44,809 nt of DNA from Candidatus Levybacteria bacterium GW2011_GWA1_37_16 (GTDB lineage Bacteria; Patescibacteriota; Microgenomatia; Levybacterales; UBA12049): positions 1 to 44,809 of the forward strand of contig CALRDJ010000002.1 of NCBI GenBank assembly GCA_943354875.1, given 5' to 3'. The notes beneath the pieces were generated by a model that saw nothing but the letters and a program-made list of their open reading frames with translations, had not been told where the DNA came from and ran no database searches. The translations under genes were made by a program, and so were the position numbers. Positions 22,530 through 34,473 of this stretch are shown one piece after another. How positions within the stretch are numbered: the stretch's first letter is position 1; each line of letters starts with the position of its first letter.

Positions 22530-23315
22530 ATGAAAAAACCAAATGTCATGATTCTTAGAACCGAGGGAACGAACTGCGATGAAGAAGCATTTTTCGCGTT
22601 CGAAAAAGCAGGCGGAAATCCAAAGATGGTGCACATAAATGATTTACGAAATAAAAAGGAGTCATTTGATAATTTTAATGTTTTGGTATTACCAGGCGGA
22701 TTTGCCTATGGCGATGATGTCGTATCGGGGAAAATTTTAGCTGTAGAACTCACTTCGTTTTTTGAAAAAGAATTAAAGAAATTCATAGAACGAAAAGATA
22801 CCGTGGTAATAGGTATTTGTAATGGATTTCAAGTATTAGTCCGTACTGGACTTCTCCCATTTAGAAATATCGGAGAAATGGATGCGACATTAACAAATAA
22901 CGATTCTGGACATTTTGAGTGCCGATGGATTCATCTAAAAATTGAAGAGAATTCTAAATCCCCAATTCTTAAAAATATCGGCGGACAAATCGTTTCTTAC
23001 CAGGTAGCACATGGTGAGGGAAAATTCTATGCAACAGATGCAGTCATGGATAAAATAGAAAAAGAAGGACTTGTCGCACTGCGCTACGTAGATGAAAGCG
23101 GTAACCCTACCCAAAACTATCCAGAAAATCCAAACGGCGCATTACATGCTATAGCCGGCATTACCGATCCGACAGGAAGAATCTTCGGTCTCATGCCACA
23201 CCCTGAGCGATTTGTTTTAGAAGAGCAACATCCTAACTTTAAACGAATGAAAAAAGTGACTCCCCAAGGTCTCCCAATATTCGAAAATATTATTACATTT
23301 ATTCAGTCTCAATAA
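22530..23315 (+). CDS. purQ: FGAM synthase glutaminase subunit
   Basis: Class I amidotransferase with the GICNGFQ nucleophile elbow and HPE near the C-terminus. 261 aa. Confidence 0.9.
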   Translation: MKKPNVMILRTEGTNCDEEAFFAFEKAGGNPKMVHINDLRNKKESFDNFNVLVLPGGFAYGDDVVSGKILAVELTSFFEKELKKFIERKDTVVIGICNGFQVLVRTGLLPFRNIGEMDATLTNNDSGHFECRWIHLKIEENSKSPILKNIGGQIVSYQVAHGEGKFYATDAVMDKIEKEGLVALRYVDESGNPTQNYPENPNGALHAIAGITDPTGRIFGLMPHPERFVLEEQHPNFKRMKKVTPQGLPIFENIITFIQSQ

Positions 23316-23364
23316 GACCGCTGTGTTAGCAAATTAAGGCTAAATACGCTATAATACCCTCCTT

Positions 23365-24438
23365 ATGAAAAATGTCGTCTTTTGGGATCTGGAAGGCCCA
23401 TTATCTCCTATGGATCATGCGTGGGAAACCGCTGATCTTTTTTCTATACAAACAGGTGGTGAAAGAAAGTCTGGAAAAGAATTATTTAGCGCTATGTCGC
23501 AAGCAATTGCACTCGATATAGAAAATAATCCTCAGTCAATTTTCCAAGCAGGCGATACACTCTCACTCCTCGTTCCGTTTTTAAAATATCATGGTGTTAG
23601 AGATATAGATTTAAGAACTGTGTCAGAAAAAGCACGACTCGTGAATGGAGCACCTGAAACTATAGCCACACTTAAAAAAATGGGCGCAGAAGAGTTTGTG
23701 CTTTCTACCAGCTACGATGGCACCTCATATGTTAACTCTACCAGCTTTATTCATCATGCAGACCGAGTAGGAAAAAGTGCTGGAGTTGATGCAGAAAATA
23801 TTTATGCTACTCATCTGGATCTTAATTCTTTGATGCTGAATCGAACATCACGAGAAAAAATAGAAATAGCGCAGTACATGATATTAGATTTGAAAGATCG
23901 TCCTGAAATACTTGCCACATATCTCACTCTACTTGCCACTAAAACTCTCCCAGATGCTGGATATGGAAATCCACTGGAGATAACTAAAGTAATGGGTGGA
24001 AAACGAAAAGCAGAAAAGATCCAAGAAATTATGGGAGAAGATGATGATTATTCAAAAGTCGTAGTAGTCGGTGACAGCATTACGGATCGAGACATGCTTC
24101 AGTTAGTCAAAGACAGAGGGGGTCTGGCTATCGCGTTTAATGCTAATCTACACGCACTTTCTCATGCAAATGCCGCACTTGCTACGACTGATATGCGCGA
24201 CATTATTCCGCTCATACAATCCTTTTGGGAAAACGGCCTAGAAAGTGCGAAAAAATTTGTAGAAGATGATGCGAGCAAGATAAGCATCAGCCCGAGAAAA
24301 GAAGGACCTCCTGTGGCAGAATCAGAAAAGAGATACCATCTGAGCTGGTTAGGACCTGAAGCAAATCTCGCAGCTACCGAGGCTATTCATGCGAGGTCTC
24401 GTTCTCTCGTTCGCGGAGAAGCTGCCAGATTAGCCTAA
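23365..24438 (+). CDS. HAD-superfamily-like protein with a variant motif I (DLEGP) and a large cap
   Basis: FWDLEGPL at the N-terminus, VLSTSY, GGKRKAEK and VVVGDSITDRD fit HAD motifs I-IV, except that the second acidic residue is Glu. 357 aa. I recognise no precise family. Confidence 0.45.
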   Translation: MKNVVFWDLEGPLSPMDHAWETADLFSIQTGGERKSGKELFSAMSQAIALDIENNPQSIFQAGDTLSLLVPFLKYHGVRDIDLRTVSEKARLVNGAPETIATLKKMGAEEFVLSTSYDGTSYVNSTSFIHHADRVGKSAGVDAENIYATHLDLNSLMLNRTSREKIEIAQYMILDLKDRPEILATYLTLLATKTLPDAGYGNPLEITKVMGGKRKAEKIQEIMGEDDDYSKVVVVGDSITDRDMLQLVKDRGGLAIAFNANLHALSHANAALATTDMRDIIPLIQSFWENGLESAKKFVEDDASKISISPRKEGPPVAESEKRYHLSWLGPEANLAATEAIHARSRSLVRGEAARLA

Positions 24439-24454
24439 ATGGTATAATTAAAAA

Positions 24455-25108
24455 ATGATAAAAGCAGTAATCTTTGACATGGATGGCCTCATGGTTGATA
24501 GCGAACCACTCCAATCTCTCGCATTTGAAGAACTAGTTAAATCATACGGGAAAACTCCGATACCTCATGAACATGGCCTCATGCAAATGGTGGGACTGGG
24601 CGGAGATGATAATTATATAATGGTACGAGAAAAACATAATATAGAAGACAACATATCTGTTTTACGAGAAAAAAGATTACCCATTTATTTTAAAATTCTC
24701 GGCGAAAAAGTTACTCCCATGCCAGGATTACTGGAACTTTTAAAACTACTGAAAAAAGAAGAATTCAAAACCGCAGTAGCATCATCGTCTCATATGTATC
24801 AAATTAATTTGGTTTTAGAAAAGCTTAATATCGCTTCGTACTTTGATAAACTAGTATCCGGTACAGAAATGCCGCACCACAAGCCGTCTCCAGATATTTA
24901 TCTCGAAGCAGCCAAGCAGCTCGATCTAGAACCACGTGAATGTGTAGCACTAGAAGATTCTTCAGTCGGCGTACAGTCAGGAAATAGTGCAGGAATGAAA
25001 GTTATCGCAGTCCCATCCACATATACCATCACTCAAGACTTATCAAAAGCTGATAAAATAGTAAATAGCTTAACTGAAGTAACCCTAGATCTTATCCATT
25101 CTCTATGA
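24455..25108 (+). CDS. HAD-IA phosphatase (beta-phosphoglucomutase-like subfamily)
   Basis: Motif I FDMDGLMVDSE, plus ASSS and EDSSVGVQSGNSAGMKVIAV. 217 aa. The stop overlaps the purM start. Confidence 0.8.
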   Translation: MIKAVIFDMDGLMVDSEPLQSLAFEELVKSYGKTPIPHEHGLMQMVGLGGDDNYIMVREKHNIEDNISVLREKRLPIYFKILGEKVTPMPGLLELLKLLKKEEFKTAVASSSHMYQINLVLEKLNIASYFDKLVSGTEMPHHKPSPDIYLEAAKQLDLEPRECVALEDSSVGVQSGNSAGMKVIAVPSTYTITQDLSKADKIVNSLTEVTLDLIHSL

Positions 25109-26211
25109 GTCAGAAAAAAATTACATACGAATCAGTCGGAGATAATTACGAAACGAAAGATCCGATAAAAAAACTCTTTCAAGAGTCCGCTCGCGCCACT
25201 GGAGAAAACCTGAAAACTCACGGCTTTTCTGAAGTCTCAGATTCCCGAGGTGAATCAGCATACGTATGGGAACAAGGAGATGTCTATATGGCATCTGTTA
25301 TCGAAGGACTCGGAACGAAAAATCTCATCGCTGATGGGATGAGAATTATTGCAAAAAAATCCTATTATGACATTATCGCTCACGATACCGTCGCTACAAT
25401 TATCAATGACCTCATTACTGTCGGTGCTACGCCACTCACACTTCATGCATATTGGGCTATCGAAGATAACGAATGGCTATACGATAAAACACGTATGACG
25501 GATCTGATCACCGGATGGAAAGATGCATGTGATATCGCGGGTGTCTCATGGGGTGGAGGAGAAACAGCGACGATGAAACAGATAGTCGTCAAAGACGTAG
25601 CAGAATTTGGCGGATCAGCGATCGGAATTATAAAAAACAAAAACCACTTGATCACTGATAAAAAATTAACCAGTGGAGATAGAATTATTTTTATAAAAAG
25701 TAATGGGGTGAATGCGAACGGTATTTCGCTCACTCGAGCCATAGCCAAAGAGTTACCAGATGGATACGCGACGCTATTACCAGACGGGACTACCTATGGC
25801 GAAGCACTCTTAACGAAATCAAATATCTATGCCAAAACTATTCAGGACTTACAATCTGCAAATATCGATATTCATTATGTGTCCAATATCACCGGACATG
25901 GCATGAGAAAGGTTATGCGCGCCAGACCAGATTTTACCTATATCATAGAAACAGTATTTGACCCCCAAGAAATATTCTTATTTATCCAAAAGCATGCAGG
26001 TCTTTCCGATGAAGAGATGTATGGCACCTATAACATGGGACAAGACTATGCGATATTTGTACCAGAAAAAGACGCAGAAAAAACTATCGAAATAATTAAA
26101 AAGAATAATTTTGATGCTATAAATGCGGGCTATATAGAGACAGGGGAGCGAGAAGTACGGCTACAATCTAAAAACATAACCTTCAAAGGCGATACGCTAA
26201 ATCTTCGATGA
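25105..26211 (+). CDS. purM: Phosphoribosylformylglycinamidine cyclo-ligase (AIR synthase), divergent
   Basis: PurM-superfamily pattern (EGLGTKNLIA, NDLITVGATPL, WGGGETA, SNGVNANGISL). 368 aa. It lies in the purine operon. Confidence 0.7.
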   Translation: MSQKKITYESVGDNYETKDPIKKLFQESARATGENLKTHGFSEVSDSRGESAYVWEQGDVYMASVIEGLGTKNLIADGMRIIAKKSYYDIIAHDTVATIINDLITVGATPLTLHAYWAIEDNEWLYDKTRMTDLITGWKDACDIAGVSWGGGETATMKQIVVKDVAEFGGSAIGIIKNKNHLITDKKLTSGDRIIFIKSNGVNANGISLTRAIAKELPDGYATLLPDGTTYGEALLTKSNIYAKTIQDLQSANIDIHYVSNITGHGMRKVMRARPDFTYIIETVFDPQEIFLFIQKHAGLSDEEMYGTYNMGQDYAIFVPEKDAEKTIEIIKKNNFDAINAGYIETGEREVRLQSKNITFKGDTLNLR

Positions 26212-26963
26212 AAAAAGTTTCCTTCTTAAGTAATCAGCAGACAGTCACTGGAACGCTTCATTTTCCTGAACTTGTAAAAGGTCTGCCTGTTGGCAGGCAA
26301 GGTAAAAATCCCGCAGCTCTTTTTATCCATGGATGGATGAGCAATGAAGACGGATACTATCCGAGAGCGAAAGCATTAACTGAACTAGGCTTTGTTTGCC
26401 TCACTATAAATCTCCGCGGACATGGAACCAGTAGCGGAAAACTGCAAGACTATTCCCGAAAAGACCACGTGGATGATTCACTTGCAGCGTACGATTTCTT
26501 GGCAAGTCAAACCTCTGTTGATGCAAATAACATCAGTATTGTCGGAGCTAGTTATGGAGGATATCTCGCTGCAATCGTGGCAGAAAAACGAAAGATTACC
26601 GCTCTTGCCCTTCGCGCACCAGCTCTGTACCCAAATACAGACTTTGACAAACCGACAGTAGATTTATTAGAAGATCGGGAGGATGAATTCTTCCAAAACT
26701 TCGAACCGGAAATAGATAACTTTGCTTTACATGGTGTTAAAAATGTAAATTCACTTCTCCTTATCGAATCTGAACTCGATCAAATCATTCCGCATAGAAT
26801 TATCGAACTGTATAAAAACCCAGTAAAAGATAAAACAAAACTAACTCATAAAATCATAAAAGAAGCCGACCATCAATTATCAAAAGAGGGGTGGAAGCAG
26901 GAATATATAGAACTACTAAAGGGGTGGTTTGGGGATGTGGATAACTTTACTCCCACTCCATAG
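26208..26963 (+). CDS. Alpha/beta-fold hydrolase (dienelactone hydrolase / S9-like)
   Basis: Nucleophile elbow GASYGG and C-terminal EADHQL. The start overlaps the purM stop (ATGA). The 3' end overlaps guaA convergently by 17 nt. Confidence 0.75.
   Translation: MKKVSFLSNQQTVTGTLHFPELVKGLPVGRQGKNPAALFIHGWMSNEDGYYPRAKALTELGFVCLTINLRGHGTSSGKLQDYSRKDHVDDSLAAYDFLASQTSVDANNISIVGASYGGYLAAIVAEKRKITALALRAPALYPNTDFDKPTVDLLEDREDEFFQNFEPEIDNFALHGVKNVNSLLLIESELDQIIPHRIIELYKNPVKDKTKLTHKIIKEADHQLSKEGWKQEYIELLKGWFGDVDNFTPTP
26284..26299. repeat. Mini-palindrome TGCCTG-TTGG-CAGGCA inside the hydrolase gene (encodes LPVGRQ)
   Basis: A perfect 6+4+6 palindrome, in frame, with the same CTGCC/GGCAG core as the other copies. 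Confidence 0.75.
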
Positions 26964-28546: not shown

Positions 28547-30076
28547 ATGCCTGTTTATTCAGACGTTGCCAAAGATCTACACGACATCTACACGAAGAAC
28601 CGAATAATAATCGGCACCTCCGCCTCACAGCAAAAACCATCAGCACGAAAAAAAACTATAGCCGTAGTCGGGATCGCTCTCGGAGATGAAGGAAAAGGAC
28701 GCCTCGTCGATAATAGAATTCAATCACTCCTAAAGAAAAAGTCTACTAAGCATGTGTATGTCGTTCGTTTTCAAGGAGGAAACAACGCTGGCCACACGAT
28801 AGAAAAAGAGGGAGTAAAACTCGCTCTGCACCTTATCCCCTCTGGCGTATTTTACAAAGAAACTATCGGTATTATGGACCGAGGTATGTTTATCCATGTA
28901 GAGGATTTACAAACCGAAGTTGGGTATGTAGAAAAAGCGATCGGAAGTCTTAAAAACCGCCTCTTCTTATCTGACGAGGCCATTTTCTCATCTGATTTGG
29001 AACGCGCTGAAGAATGGCTTAACCGCATAAAAGCAGGGCAGGCTGCTGGCGGAACCGGTCGCGGAGTCGCACCATCATACGCTCATGCGATTGATCGACT
29101 GGGACTAAAGATGTTTGATTTTTTATCCGATGGGTGGACTGAAAAACTCGGTGATCAATATGATCGATATGTAAAAGAATTTAAAGCATATGGTATTGAT
29201 CTAAAGATAGTTGAAGTACCAGACTTTTTAGCAACGATTGCAGCAGGGTCTGAAAAAAAACGAAAAGTAGGCAGTAAAAAAGAATTTTTATCTAGACTTG
29301 AAACAGCCAGGAATTGGCTAGTCAAACGAAAAATGATTATCAACACGTTTCTTGTCCATAAAAAAATAAAAAATGACTCTTCTATCGCGATTCTTTTCGA
29401 GGGCGCACAAGCTACGGGACTTGATCCATGGATTGGAACTAGACCAGATGTTACCTCGACTAATACATCCGCATATGGAATCCGAGATGGCACTGCGTTC
29501 TGGCAACCATTTGAAGTAGAAAAAAAGGTCGGCGTATTTAAAATTCCTTATACTTCCAGTGTCGGTGCTAGACGCATGCCTACTCACATCGATCTCCCAA
29601 AAGACCTGAAAGACTTACCGAAGAATCCATCGCTTGACCAAGAATGGGGCGCATATGTCCGTGAAACTGCACATGAATACGGCACGACCACCGGACGACC
29701 TCGAGATATTAACCATCTCGATCTTCCATTTCTCTCATACAACGCCAAAATGTCTTATATTGACGTACTTGAAGGAACTCATCTGGATATAGCACGAGAA
29801 GACACTAAGATCAAAGTGTGTACACATTATGTGAATAAAAAGGGAGAGATAGTTCCCTATCAACCAGGACTCAGATATCAAAGAGACATTACTCCCATAT
29901 ACATAGAGCTACCTGGATGGGACGGCAGTCTCTGTAAAAAGGCCAAGAAAGTTACAGATTTACCACTGAACGCTCGAAAATATCTAAGCTTCATCCAGAA
30001 AAGAATGGGACTACCCATTGTCGGAGTTACCACTGGATCTCTGCGGGACAACATCGTCTACTTCGAAGGATATTAA
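28547..30076 (+). CDS. purA: Adenylosuccinate synthetase, unusually long divergent form
   Basis: GDEGKGRLVD, QGGNNAGHT, GGTGRGVAPSY, FEGAQATGLD and GTTTGRPR motifs are present. At 509 aa it carries an N-terminal extension and internal insertions relative to the ~430 aa canonical enzymes. Confidence 0.85.
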   Translation: MPVYSDVAKDLHDIYTKNRIIIGTSASQQKPSARKKTIAVVGIALGDEGKGRLVDNRIQSLLKKKSTKHVYVVRFQGGNNAGHTIEKEGVKLALHLIPSGVFYKETIGIMDRGMFIHVEDLQTEVGYVEKAIGSLKNRLFLSDEAIFSSDLERAEEWLNRIKAGQAAGGTGRGVAPSYAHAIDRLGLKMFDFLSDGWTEKLGDQYDRYVKEFKAYGIDLKIVEVPDFLATIAAGSEKKRKVGSKKEFLSRLETARNWLVKRKMIINTFLVHKKIKNDSSIAILFEGAQATGLDPWIGTRPDVTSTNTSAYGIRDGTAFWQPFEVEKKVGVFKIPYTSSVGARRMPTHIDLPKDLKDLPKNPSLDQEWGAYVRETAHEYGTTTGRPRDINHLDLPFLSYNAKMSYIDVLEGTHLDIAREDTKIKVCTHYVNKKGEIVPYQPGLRYQRDITPIYIELPGWDGSLCKKAKKVTDLPLNARKYLSFIQKRMGLPIVGVTTGSLRDNIVYFEGY

Positions 30077-31329: not shown

Positions 31330-31358
31330 ACTATACAATGAGGCGCCTTTTTTGTCAA
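31330..31358 (-). promoter_or_regulatory. guaB promoter (leaderless configuration)
   Basis: On the minus strand, TTGACA (31358-31353)-17 nt-TATAGT (31335-31330), with the ATG (31324) 5 nt downstream. Confidence 0.6.
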
Positions 31359-31397: not shown

Positions 31398-32732
31398 TTA
31401 ACTCACAGGACTGAGCTCTCTCAACTCTCCGTTTAATAATTTCGGAATTGAAATCCTGTGCGCTCCAGATGGAACACCTTTAAAAATTGCCTGAGCAATT
31501 TCTCCTACATCTGCATGCGTTATAAGTAATACTGTCTCTCCATGGTGTACTTTTTCCAATTCTTTTATGAGAAGACTAATTCTCCGCGCAACGTCATCCG
31601 TGGTCTCCGCGTGAAAACCTCTGGCAAGCTCTGGATCTTTTTGATCTGCATCGTATACTATCTGATAATTTGATTTTTTTGTTCCCTCAAATTGACCAAA
31701 ATCTCGCTCTTGAAGTTCGAACTTCGGAACTACGCTACCATCGTATCCATACTCCTGTCTAAATTCAGAGGCAGACTCCCTACATCTCTGAAAAGGAGAA
31801 GCATAAATTGCGCCTATATGAATGCCGTTACTTTTTGCTACTTTAGCTGCTTGTTTCATCTGCTCTCTTCCTTTACTCGTAATACCAAAGTCTTCGATAC
31901 CATTTAGGGGACTGCTTATGATTACACCTTGTTCATTTGCTACGCTCTCCCCATGCCTCAAGACTAAATAGCGATTCCTCAGTCTTTCAGAAGAAAATAA
32001 ACTTGAGTTTTCTTGCCAACTATCCATAGCTAGTTTTATTAGTAAGAGCATATCAGGCACTACTCTTTCTTCATACCTTCCAAAGTTCTTCACTATAATA
32101 TGTGCTCCAGGGAAAATAATCGCTGATCGCTCGTCTTTAGATAACCTAAACGCTACTTCTTCAGGTGATTTTATAAATAAATCAGGTGAGCGTCTCTGTA
32201 GCCTTCTCTCTCTTTCTTTATCAGGAGTATATAGTCCAACAACGAGAGCATTTTCAAGCACAGAAGACGGTTGAATACTTGCTGGATTTTTCACGATAAC
32301 ATTATTAGCAAAAAATATGGGTAACTTTCCAAGCGTTGGTTTTTCCAGACCAAATGGCTCAGTTCTACCACCTTCCATTGTCTTGATACCATACAGTCCG
32401 AGGCCTCCATCCTGAAGGAGGGTTTTAAATTCTTCAGAAGAGGAGTGAAATACTTCATGCCCATCATCAGAGCGAAGTGGACGAGTAATTACTCTTCTTG
32501 GAACACTAATCTTTCCTGCGAAATGAGCATCTTGAGTAGAAGCATCTATAACCGCTTTTTGTATTGTTGATTTACCACTTGCAGAAGATCCGACAAAAAT
32601 GACAGATGAAACTTCATCTAATTGCGAAAGGTTTCTTGTCCTAACCCTAAGAGAGTCCATTCTTGCTTCTCGGATTGCTTTTGCAAGTTTATTTTCTCCC
32701 TGTCCTCTTGCTGTTTCTGTATTTATAGCCAT
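31398..32732 (-). CDS. Fusion protein: N-terminal P-loop kinase (PhnN/guanylate-kinase-like) plus C-terminal histidine phosphatase (PGAM/CobC superfamily)
   Basis: The N-terminal half has Walker A VGSSASGKST and RRVITRP...SSEEF spacing, as in PhnN/GMP-kinase-type proteins. The C-terminal half has LVLRHGES (the RHG catalytic motif) and LLITHADV (the second His). 444 aa. Confidence 0.65.
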   Translation of the reverse strand: MAINTETARGQGENKLAKAIREARMDSLRVRTRNLSQLDEVSSVIFVGSSASGKSTIQKAVIDASTQDAHFAGKISVPRRVITRPLRSDDGHEVFHSSSEEFKTLLQDGGLGLYGIKTMEGGRTEPFGLEKPTLGKLPIFFANNVIVKNPASIQPSSVLENALVVGLYTPDKERERRLQRRSPDLFIKSPEEVAFRLSKDERSAIIFPGAHIIVKNFGRYEERVVPDMLLLIKLAMDSWQENSSLFSSERLRNRYLVLRHGESVANEQGVIISSPLNGIEDFGITSKGREQMKQAAKVAKSNGIHIGAIYASPFQRCRESASEFRQEYGYDGSVVPKFELQERDFGQFEGTKKSNYQIVYDADQKDPELARGFHAETTDDVARRISLLIKELEKVHHGETVLLITHADVGEIAQAIFKGVPSGAHRISIPKLLNGELRELSPVS

Positions 32733-32883
32733 AAAAAAACCTCTCGTAAAGAGAGGTTTGCCTTCTCACCTAGTAAGTGGACTAATCCTTCCCTTTACGG
32801 GTTGGGTTTAGCACCGTTTCAATTTTGAGCGGTTGCCGGATGGGTCACAGAGCCAATTCTCTCGCCATCACTCTTGATTAAAG
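32733..32883 (-). promoter_or_regulatory. SAM-I (S-box) riboswitch: aptamer (32779-32883) plus intrinsic terminator / RBS-sequestering hairpin (32733-32760)
   Basis: The minus-strand RNA is CUUUAAUCAAGAGUGAUGGCGAGAGAAUUGGCUCUGUGACCCAUCCGGCAACCGCUCAAAAUUGAAACGGUGCUAAACCCAACCCGUAAAGGGAAGGAUUAGUCC. It carries the S-box signatures AUCAAGAG, P2 GAUGG/CCAUC with a kink-turn, CGGCAACC, GGUGCUAAA, a P4 hairpin and P1 UUAAUC/GAUUAG. It is followed by ACCUCUC-UUUAC-GAGAGGU, a U-run and the AUG. Confidence 0.88.
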
Positions 32884-32885
32884 CG

Positions 32886-32914
32886 ATTGTATCAAAAACA
32901 GTTGTTCTCGACAA
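32886..32914 (-). promoter_or_regulatory. Promoter driving the S-box leader
   Basis: On the minus strand, TTGTCG (32914-32909)-17 nt-TACAAT (32891-32886) with an extended-10 TG. Confidence 0.6.
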
Positions 32915-32943
32915 GCTCGAACTATAATTGCTACTATAGTAGT

Positions 32944-34473
32944 ATGTTAGCCACAGTAAATTCTTCTGCGGTGGTGGGACTTAACGCTGTCCCTATCGAA
33001 GTGGAAATAGATATTTCCGCCCAAGGCCTCCCCTCTTTTACCATCGTCGGATTACCAGATAAAGCAGTCGAAGAAGCGAAAGAGCGCGTCAGAAGCGCAC
33101 TAAAAAATAGTAAAGCGGATTTTCCAGCGAAACGCATTACAGTAAATCTCGCCCCAGCAGACCTGCCAAAAGAAGGCGCCTCATATGATCTCCCTATCGC
33201 ACTTGGGATTCTTCTCGCATCAGAGCAATTAAAAGGCGACTTCACCACCAGTCTTTTCCTCGGCGAACTATCTCTGGACGGACGACTTAGACACGGAAAC
33301 GGCATACTTCCCCAGATAATTATGGCTAAAGAAAAGAATATCGATACAGTATTTGTCCCGAGTATGAATGCGCAGGAGGCAGCGATCATAAAAGACATAA
33401 CAGTGTATCCAGTCGCTACTCTCACTGAACTTTTTAAGCACATTACAGGACTCAAACTTATAGAACCCCAGAAACATATTTCTCATGAAACTCTGTTATC
33501 ACAGGAGTCTTATGAATTTGATATGCATGATATTCGAGGTCAGGAACAGGCAAAGCGCGCATTTGAAATCGCAGCAGCAGGTGGACATAACATGCTACTA
33601 AAAGGCCCTCCTGGTTCTGGAAAAACACTGCTCGCTAGAACTCTCCCCTCCATCCTTCCCCGCTTAACACTTGATGAGGCGCTGGAAGTTACGAAAATTT
33701 ATAGCGTTTGTGGCATGCTCGATAAGCCTCTTATTACTACCCGTCCATTCAGAAGTCCTCATCACACCACCTCCCACATCGGACTTATCGGTGGAAGTGC
33801 GACGCCAAAACCAGGAGAGATCTCACTAGCCCATCGAGGGGTTTTATTTTTAGACGAACTACCAGAATTTCCCCGTCATGTTCTCGAGGCACTTCGTCAA
33901 CCACTGGAGGATGGGATCGTAACGATCGCCCGCGCGAATGGTCGCGTCGCATTTCCTGCTAAATTTATGCTGGTCGCCGCACAAAACCCGTGCCCCTGTG
34001 GATACCTGGGAGACAAAACACACTCGTGTTCCTGTAGTACCTCTCAAATCTTACGCTATCAGAAAAAAATATCAGGGCCACTTCTTGACCGCATCGATAT
34101 ACATCTCGAAGTTCCCGCAGTAAAAACAGATAAGCTCACTGATCAGGAAGAAAACATGAATGAAACATCCGAGTCCATCCAAAAGAGAGTCCAAAAAGCC
34201 CGCGACTTTCAAACCAAACGGTTTGAAGAATTGAACATCACTTGTAACGCAGAAATGTCCCAAAAAGAAATTAAAAAGTTCTGTGAATTATCGAAAGAGT
34301 CGCATACGCTCCTTCAGCTTGCAGTCACGAAAATGAATCTATCTGCGCGCTCATACTATCGCATCATCCGGCTCGCCCGCACCATCGCTGATTTAGAAAA
34401 TAAACTAGAAATCGCTCCCTCTCACATCGCAGAAGCGCTCCAATATCGTCCAAAAACTGATACACTCTTCTAA
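32944..34473 (+). CDS. comM: Mg-chelatase-like AAA+ ATPase ComM/YifB
   Basis: MLATVNSSAVVGLNAVPIEVEIDI is the typical N-terminus. Walker A is GPPGSGKT, and the C-terminus is SHIAEALQYR. I used ATG 32944 rather than the TTG-extended ORF from 32887. Confidence 0.9.
   Translation: MLATVNSSAVVGLNAVPIEVEIDISAQGLPSFTIVGLPDKAVEEAKERVRSALKNSKADFPAKRITVNLAPADLPKEGASYDLPIALGILLASEQLKGDFTTSLFLGELSLDGRLRHGNGILPQIIMAKEKNIDTVFVPSMNAQEAAIIKDITVYPVATLTELFKHITGLKLIEPQKHISHETLLSQESYEFDMHDIRGQEQAKRAFEIAAAGGHNMLLKGPPGSGKTLLARTLPSILPRLTLDEALEVTKIYSVCGMLDKPLITTRPFRSPHHTTSHIGLIGGSATPKPGEISLAHRGVLFLDELPEFPRHVLEALRQPLEDGIVTIARANGRVAFPAKFMLVAAQNPCPCGYLGDKTHSCSCSTSQILRYQKKISGPLLDRIDIHLEVPAVKTDKLTDQEENMNETSESIQKRVQKARDFQTKRFEELNITCNAEMSQKEIKKFCELSKESHTLLQLAVTKMNLSARSYYRIIRLARTIADLENKLEIAPSHIAEALQYRPKTDTLF

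Follow-up and report, generated by a model that had tools for sequence, protein, structure and literature searches.

Identification of the S-box-controlled gene

The window analysed here is a stretch of 44,809 nt from Candidatus Levybacteria bacterium GW2011_GWA1_37_16 (GCA_943354875.1, contig CALRDJ010000002.1, positions 1-44,809, forward strand). On its minus strand, downstream of an S-box riboswitch of the S-adenosylmethionine (SAM) class, lies a gene for a 444-amino-acid (aa) fusion of a P-loop kinase and a histidine phosphatase. An earlier reading of the sequence alone (the original prediction) had named this fusion as the single open reading frame (ORF) behind the S-box; the ORF list confirms it at 31398..32732, and the motifs that had been quoted were all located in the protein: VGSSASGKST at residues 47-56, RRVITRP at 79-85, SSEEF at 98-102, LVLRHGES at 256-263 and ITHADV at 403-408. 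Three full-length homologues were found with 51-53% sequence identity, one of them from Candidatus Roizmanbacteria. The fusion thus genuinely belongs to the S-box regulon, as a conserved member that had not been described. The features of the gene and its leader are as follows.

32886..32914, minus strand: promoter-like site (TTGTCG, 17 nt, TACAAT, extended TG; 9 of 12 in a consensus scan)
32780..32883, minus strand: SAM-I (S-box) aptamer (Rfam RF00162, model positions 1-108, 54.9 bits against a gathering score of 44.4, E = 4.5e-10)
32746..32798, minus strand: predicted antiterminator helix (ViennaRNA fold without the 3′ arm of the terminator, -17.3 kcal/mol)
32733..32759, minus strand: intrinsic terminator (AAACCTCTC, loop TTTAC, GAGAGGTTT, T-run; terminator scan and sequence)
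32740..32745, minus strand: Shine-Dalgarno-like GAGAGG, read from the sequence, 7 nt before the ATG
31398..32732, minus strand: coding sequence of the kinase/phosphatase fusion, 444 aa (ORF list)
31998..32705, minus strand: PhnN-like P-loop kinase domain of the guanylate-kinase fold, residues ~10-245 (alignments A1 and A2)
32565..32591, minus strand: Walker A motif or P-loop, GSSASGKST, residues 48-56 (family alignment)
31461..31964, minus strand: branch-1 histidine phosphatase domain, residues 257-424 (Pfam PF00300, His_Phos_1, E = 1.5e-26)

The riboswitch and its expression platform

When the whole 44.8-kb window was scanned with Rfam, the one structured RNA found was the SAM-I aptamer at 32883..32780 (-), which matches the covariance model over its full length and can be aligned with the aptamers ahead of orthologous loci. 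The promoter-like site ends 3 nt before the aptamer, a position that suits a start of the aptamer at 32883. The spacing from the aptamer to the ATG is 47 bases, and the terminator within it consists of a 9-bp hairpin (32759-32737) and a run of seven T that reaches exactly to the start codon. In the predicted antiterminator, GUAAAGGGAAGG (32798-32787, comprising the 3′ sides of P4 and P1) pairs with CCUCUCUUUAC (32756-32746, comprising the 5′ arm and loop of the terminator); as folded, this helix would exclude both the bound aptamer and the terminator. Because a terminator with a competing antiterminator is the classical S-box logic, an OFF switch is the supported reading of the predicted structures, and the original call stands on the score of the aptamer, the terminator and the predicted alternative helix. 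The only Shine-Dalgarno-like sequence of the leader, GAGAGG, lies within the 3′ arm of the terminator, so the hairpin should also occlude ribosome binding and block translation besides transcription.

The switch is expected to work as follows. With SAM bound, the aptamer would hold the 3′ sides of P4 and P1, and the terminator (32759-32733) would form, halting transcription and burying the ribosome-binding site. With SAM scarce, the freed P4 and P1 strands would pair with the 5′ arm of the terminator as the antiterminator, and the gene would be expressed.

The S-box has a general role in methionine metabolism (PMC3766115). The window resembles the classical S-box (SAM-I) regulon of the Firmicutes in its class of aptamer and in the OFF logic of terminator and antiterminator, but the products controlled in Firmicutes serve methionine or cysteine biosynthesis, SAM synthesis (metK), transport or salvage, whereas the fusion falls outside these and its host is a candidate phyla radiation (CPR) bacterium. 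Literature searches aimed at the link to SAM riboswitches found no report that ties such a kinase or phosphatase, or CPR bacteria, to these riboswitches. The placement of the fusion beyond the known S-box regulon is thereby upheld, its product not being among the described classes. Sensor and mechanism are of an ordinary kind, but the enzyme pair under their control is not: no member of it has been characterised, it lacks a Pfam family, and no literature on it was found.

The C-terminal histidine phosphatase

The original assignment of the C-terminal half to the branch-1 histidine phosphatases is borne out by the His_Phos_1 model (93.7 bits against a cut-off of 21.7) and by a complete catalytic set: none of R259, H260, R316, E342 and H406 varies among nine orthologous partner phosphatases. 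Its residues unambiguously predict a catalytically complete enzyme of this branch. The nearest solved structures are those of PhoE (1ebb and 1h2e, E = 4e-8), PspA (4ij5) and CobC (3hjg), phosphatases that have the same catalytic residues, but the C-terminal half scores far under all equivalog cut-offs (for CobC, 59.3 bits against 162.9 for TIGR03162). The orthologous group is further marked by invariant residues of its own (N, C71, Y..VY..D, HR and K, in the numbering of alignment A7). A CobC or CobU-CobC role in cobinamide salvage was rejected on the CobC score, there being also no CobU-type kinase and no cobalamin riboswitch.

The N-terminal kinase

The kinase half has a perfect P-loop (G48-T56; the family alignment shows no variation at G48, S49, S50, G53 and K54), the motif P-R-R-V-I-T-R-P-x-R and an arginine-rich lid. 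It had been likened to PhnN (ribose 1,5-bisphosphokinase) or guanylate kinase, and profile searches and structure prediction agree, although every profile score is below threshold. Against the Pfam model Guanylate_kin (PF00625) it scored 19.6 bits, under the cut-off of 25.2 and over residues 43-107 only; against the PhnN model TIGR02322 it scored 19.8 bits, where the equivalog cut-off is 156. The PhnN model was matched by all 32 diverse relatives scanned (best E = 4.8e-17) and the guanylate kinase model by 26 of the 32 (best E = 1.5e-8); those relatives that were scored individually against the PhnN model reached 28.4 to 46.6 bits, likewise far under the cut-off. Comparison by hhalign gave a probability of 97% (E = 1e-10) with PhnN of Escherichia coli (b4094) and 94.8% (E = 5e-8) with Gmk of E. 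coli. Canonical membership of either family was rejected, both scores being under the cut-offs: the kinase is a PhnN-like member of the guanylate-kinase fold outside both named families.

PhnN (TIGR02322 or COG3709) is likewise a P-loop kinase of ~185-230 aa, the best-scoring named family for each of the 32 relatives, and shares with the kinase half the order of its motifs (GxxGxGK[ST], [RK]R.ITR..R, the LID motif RL..R and a C-terminal helix). The window protein differs from it in having V94 and G115 where PhnN and most relatives have N and W, in an insertion MEGGRxE, and in being fused to a histidine phosphatase and controlled by SAM with no phn operon. With guanylate kinase (PF00625 or TIGR03263) it has in common the fold and the phosphate-binding motif TRxxR, but the residues of the guanine-binding region are not conserved and profile comparison places Gmk at a greater distance than PhnN.

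In the AlphaFold2 models, the predicted local distance difference test score (pLDDT) is 88.5 for the kinase domain modelled alone and, as a mean, 79 for the full-length fusion. The top 50 Foldseek matches of the kinase model are all guanylate kinases or guanylate-kinase-like domains, with template modelling (TM) scores of 0.38-0.73 (query- and target-normalised); the best are guanosine monophosphate (GMP) kinases at 0.6-0.73, which places the domain in the guanylate-kinase fold. As there is no PhnN structure among the matches listed, the fold comparison cannot separate PhnN from Gmk.

These structural matches would suit a divergent nucleotide kinase (for GMP or adenosine monophosphate, for example) paired with a nucleotidase that balances the purine pools, the riboswitch being a lineage-specific addition with no link to methionine chemistry. 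The gene also adjoins guaB, guaA and purA, and some relatives outside its own subclade lie in pur operons. Such a pair is nevertheless very improbable: the sequence is nearer to PhnN than to Gmk, Y114 and G115 stand where the region of the guanine-binding Glu of Gmk aligns, the SAM aptamer is kept across distant loci that have no purine neighbours, and a kinase fused to a phosphatase acting on one and the same nucleotide would be a futile cycle.

With its P-loop kinase at the N-terminus and its branch-1 histidine phosphatase at the C-terminus, the fusion also has the layout of 6-phosphofructo-2-kinase/fructose-2,6-bisphosphatase (PFKFB, PFK-2/FBPase-2), which gave the top Foldseek matches of the full-length fusion (E = 2e-8, with an overall TM score of only ~0.3). 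The fusion has no match to 6PF2K (PF01591) at E <= 1, and its kinase half alone matches GMP kinases. True homology was rejected, since the layout alone is shared; the likeness is one of analogous, independently assembled architecture.

The operons for sulfate assimilation (cys) can be under S-box control, and the fusion might be a cryptic adenosine 5′-phosphosulfate (APS) kinase joined to a phosphatase for 3′-phosphoadenosine 5′-phosphate, both among the classical functions of the S-box. The synthesis of 3′-phosphoadenosine 5′-phosphosulfate followed by removal of 3′-phosphoadenosine 5′-phosphate would suit the logic of a kinase plus a phosphatase. This explanation is effectively refuted: neither the protein nor any of the 32 relatives has an APS_kinase (PF01583) or CysC match at E <= 1 (Pfam and NCBIfam), and no locus has a sat, cysH or cysD neighbour. 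As originally stated, the N-terminal half is not APS kinase, nor does it match the model of another named S-box enzyme. A defence protein was likewise rejected, with no PADLOC family at E <= 0.01 for the fusion or for one Nudix-kinase relative.

A SAM-linked subclade of the kinase family

An exhaustive profile search for the kinase domain gave 359 clusters at 50% identity (E <= 0.001). The family has no Pfam family, although the Joint Genome Institute (JGI) pipeline labels some of its members 'ribose 1,5-bisphosphokinase PhnN'. For the most part these are proteins of ~220 aa or Nudix-kinase fusions in which either domain may come first, and the genomes are mainly those of Parcubacteria-type CPR bacteria.

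The window protein belongs to a subclade of 16 among 212 aligned kinase domains that has V/I...YG...F in place of the EN...W...S of the main clade; for all 16 members the nearest neighbour is inside the subclade. E-N is replaced by E or D with a hydrophobic residue (V94 in the window protein), W by G (G115) and S by F (F141), at positions that are nearly invariant elsewhere. PhnN of E. coli has E-N and W like the main clade, and thus the residues of the window protein (E93-V94, Y114-G115) are not those of PhnN. In the alignment to Gmk the changed positions fall in the segment that binds the acceptor (GMP), and the replacements may well signify a change of acceptor specificity.

Wherever the context of a subclade member was retrieved, the kinase is coupled to an orthologous histidine phosphatase. 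The kinase precedes the phosphatase in the fusions of the window, L001 and L002, and follows it in the reverse fusion P0044. The two are adjacent genes with the phosphatase first in L003, L004, L022, L024-28, L043 and L044, and with the kinase first in L042. That the two are fused in both orders and also linked in operons argues strongly for a joint action of kinase and phosphatase.

Conservation of SAM control

The original prediction had asked whether SAM-responsive leaders accompany orthologues of the fusion. A SAM-clan aptamer was found ahead of seven of the nine distinct subclade loci (kinase with histidine phosphatase) for which upstream DNA was available, but at none of 24 distinct main-clade loci (hypergeometric p = 36/4,272,048, ~8e-6), so the possibility that the two never co-occur is not borne out. 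The seven aptamers are as follows.

Window: SAM-I, 54.9 bits
L003 (Candidatus Daviesbacteria): SAM-I, 55.2 bits
L002 (Candidatus Roizmanbacteria): SAM-I, 48.7 bits
L044, 1373-1470 and 1538-1641: tandem SAM-I x2 ahead of the phosphatase-kinase operon, 41.8 and 32.9 bits
L024: SAM-I, 40.8 bits, E = 5e-6
L001: SAM-I/IV-like, 40.6 bits against a gathering score of 41.1
L022: SAM-I, 5′-truncated at the contig end, 26.4 bits

The design of the terminator is conserved as well, with CCTCTC...GAGAGG and a T-run recurring in L002, L003, L024 and L044. In the window, L002, L024 and L044, a 3′ arm containing GAGAGG or GGAGG and the T-run lie 2-13 nt before a candidate start codon; the leader of L003 has the same arm and T-run, but farther upstream of the first gene.

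Several neighbouring genes suggest that the module is connected with the SAM cycle. In L001, metK lies 33 nt downstream of the fusion. A divergent Cys_Met_Meta_PP enzyme, dependent on pyridoxal phosphate (PLP), and a serine hydrolase are encoded between the aptamer and the phosphatase-kinase pair of L022, in the same operon. In L003, ahcY is within 2 kb, and a ribokinase-family kinase of the nucleoside or ribose-1-phosphate type is also nearby. Adjacency to purine genes was seen in the window alone among the subclade loci and is probably incidental for the SAM-linked subclade, because its other loci do not share it.

Possible substrates of the kinase and phosphatase

The preferred account of the locus is that a SAM-I OFF riboswitch governs a bifunctional enzyme, and that this enzyme is part of a conserved module under SAM control, as yet uncharacterised, in CPR bacteria of the Microgenomates type. 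The riboswitch, the identities of the domains, the conserved coupling of kinase and phosphatase and the conservation of SAM control are shown, and the class of substrate and the direction of flux are inferred; taken whole, the account has about an even chance of being right. The kinase retains the P-loop, the lid arginines and TRxxR, which binds the acceptor phosphate in guanylate kinases. Because TRxxR is kept while residues of the acceptor pocket have changed, the acceptor would be a phosphorylated ribose derivative other than ribose-1,5-bisphosphate (R15P). Its likeliest source would be the ribose of a SAM by-product, for example a 5-substituted ribose-1-phosphate derived from 5′-methylthioadenosine (MTA) or 5′-deoxyadenosine. 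The substrates put forward in the original prediction (5-methylthioribose, 5-deoxyribose or ribose-bisphosphate-type intermediates) are likewise conjectural. The partner phosphatase would work in the same short pathway, which would raise the supply of methionine, adenylate or SAM when SAM is scarce; regeneration of these is the most likely service of the pair because it would be expressed at low SAM and has metK, ahcY and a Cys/Met PLP enzyme among its neighbours.

Several points weigh against this account. Four of the seven supporting aptamers score below the Rfam gathering score (40.6 bits; 40.8 bits; 41.8 and 32.9 bits; 26.4 bits with 5′ truncation), and no recognisable aptamer was found in the subclade loci L004 and L042. 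In these two loci a terminator hairpin and T-run abut the start codon after a leader of ~100-150 nt (3195-3352 in L004, 4880-5012 in L042), and the leaders may contain a divergent or different sensor; an alternative motif shared by the two comes from a two-sequence alignment only and is unconvincing. The metK, ahcY and PLP-enzyme neighbours were each seen at one locus only. The ribose-phosphate class of substrate is an extrapolation, since the kinase is far below the cut-offs for PhnN and guanylate kinase, and the purine neighbours in the window would fit a plain phosphoribosyl pyrophosphate (PRPP) or nucleotide role equally well. To our knowledge, the diphosphate that would be made from 5-methylthioribose-1-phosphate (MTR-1-P) or a similar sugar phosphate has no downstream user.

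That product belongs to a more specific form of the proposal, in which the subclade kinase, derived from PhnN, would phosphorylate the 1-phosphate of a 5-substituted ribose (such as MTR-1-P or 5-deoxyribose-1-phosphate) once more, giving an activated ribosyl diphosphate resembling PRPP, and a dedicated histidine phosphatase would finish or police the reaction. Such a salvage chemistry is not known from cultured bacteria; it is speculative and in this exact form rather improbable; if true, it would be a new route of methionine or adenine salvage, switched on in minimal CPR cells at low SAM.

The main rival to the preferred account is a generic PRPP/R15P switch, in which the kinase would have the function of PhnN, converting R15P and ATP to PRPP (PMC9700705), and the phosphatase would reverse or drain the reaction, setting the split between nucleotide synthesis and R15P/RuBisCO catabolism in CPR bacteria; control by SAM would then mirror how much adenylate SAM synthesis demands. 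Among named families PhnN is the closest, and its name is the one that the JGI gives to relatives; main-clade kinases occur in purine operons (purL-kinase-purQ in L040, kinase-rnhA-purM in L029) and beside pentose-phosphate genes (L037); the window gene adjoins guaB, purA and the pur cluster; and the architecture parallels PFK-2/FBPase-2. Main-clade kinases are fused to Nudix domains, and in a published proposal a Nudix hydrolase makes R15P from PRPP (PMC7300363). Such a switch suits the main clade better than the SAM-linked subclade, which has lost the EN and W residues of E. coli PhnN and the main clade, has purine neighbours only in the window, and has SAM aptamers, metK, ahcY and the Cys/Met PLP enzyme as its conserved links; nor are PRPP genes in any known S-box regulon. 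For the subclade, a PRPP switch is therefore a serious but unlikely candidate.

The conserved SAM control and the metK and Cys/Met-enzyme neighbours could also be explained if the pair were a non-orthologous replacement for enzymes of the known methionine salvage pathway, the kinase acting as MtnK on free 5-methylthioribose and the phosphatase as MtnX or MtnC late in the pathway. In Bacillus, the kinase and phosphatase genes of methionine salvage do belong to the S-box regulon, and an aminotransferase gene lies upstream of the module in L002. The retention of TRxxR favours a phosphorylated acceptor over a free sugar hydroxyl, however, no isomerase, dehydratase, enolase or dioxygenase gene was found in any of the loci, and the full pathway is not known from CPR genomes, which together make the replacement of MtnK and its partners distinctly unlikely.

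Significance of the module

Few things point to missing metabolism as reliably as a gene of unknown function under riboswitch control, since the ligand tells which pathway is concerned. The extension of the S-box regulon to a new enzyme module in CPR bacteria, pointing to a missing step of SAM or methionine metabolism, is a well-supported lead, and the kinase-phosphatase pair occurs in organisms whose SAM and methionine economy is poorly understood. The identity of its substrate would enlarge the S-box regulon, would give a function to ~359 PhnN-like clusters, including the widespread Nudix fusions, and may show by what means ultra-small symbionts reuse the ribose or the adenine of SAM. As a compact single protein, the fusion makes the function directly testable.

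The main clade and its Nudix fusions

The kinase domains of the Nudix fusions (P0028 of Candidatus Liptonbacteria, for example) are 38-45% identical to that of the window. They are likewise joined to a phosphohydrolase in either order, but to Nudix rather than to a histidine phosphatase; they keep the EN/W/S residues and have no SAM aptamer at any of the 24 loci. In L005-L010, L012-L018 and L032-L034, the domain fused to the N- or C-terminus of the main-clade kinase resembles ADP-ribose pyrophosphatase, and the Nudix-kinase genes often adjoin a DHH-DHHA2 gene resembling manganese-dependent inorganic pyrophosphatase. The fusions and this neighbour are a second conserved module, in Parcubacteria-type CPR bacteria, with no assigned function. 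A metagenome scan added 10 loci, all of them main-clade.

Other main-clade kinases have different surroundings. In L040 (3032-11467), the kinase gene lies between purL and purQ in a CPR purine operon that continues with purE, purM, purC and an HD hydrolase gene, and in L029 (5001-7283) it precedes rnhA-purM; the placement hints at a role related to PRPP. In L037 (5410-6585), a 194-aa family member begins 3 nt after a 195-aa ORF with no family match, the pair being just downstream of the oxidative pentose-phosphate genes pgi, fbp, gnd, zwf and pgl.

Genomic neighbourhood of the fusion

The purine neighbourhood noted in the original prediction was found to comprise purB, purK, purE, purC, purL, purQ, purM, guaA, purA and guaB. 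The guaB gene, which follows the fusion, had also been credited with a promoter of its own, and a promoter-like site does lie at that position.

31330..31358, minus strand: guaB promoter-like site (TTGACA, 17 nt, TATAGT; 11 of 12 consensus positions in a consensus scan)

The claim that the fusion is monocistronic has this strong promoter-like site in its favour, but the terminator scan found no terminator-like site between the stop codon of the fusion and guaB. The fusion is likely monocistronic, and some SAM-dependent read-through into guaB is possible because no terminator separates them. The -10 element TATAGT of the guaB promoter-like site (31335-31330, minus strand) ends just 5 nt ahead of the guaB ATG (31324), so the guaB mRNA may be leaderless or nearly so. 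The guaB product has 380 aa and an unbroken match to the Pfam IMPDH model (1-345 of 345), which suggests that it has no CBS subdomain.

The purA gene (28547-30076, plus strand) is unusually long, encoding 509 aa with an N-terminal extension of ~38 aa ahead of the Pfam domain, and the domain itself is stretched, with 465 residues aligned to a model of 416 positions. Between purQ and purM (22530-26963), the cluster is split by a 357-aa ORF with no confident family and an HAD_2 hydrolase gene; homology of the 357-aa ORF (23365-24438) to the SAM_HAT_C-like ORF of L040 was considered and rejected. After purM there is an alpha/beta hydrolase gene, and genes of this kind likewise lie beside or within the SAM-regulated module of L002 and L022.

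On the other side of the riboswitch, on the opposite strand, the comM/yifB ORF as listed has a TTG start that abuts the riboswitch (32887-32944, plus strand). Going by the conserved N-terminus MLATVNSSAVVGL, the ATG at 32944 is more likely to be the start of comM/yifB, which would leave a divergent intergenic region of 211 nt.

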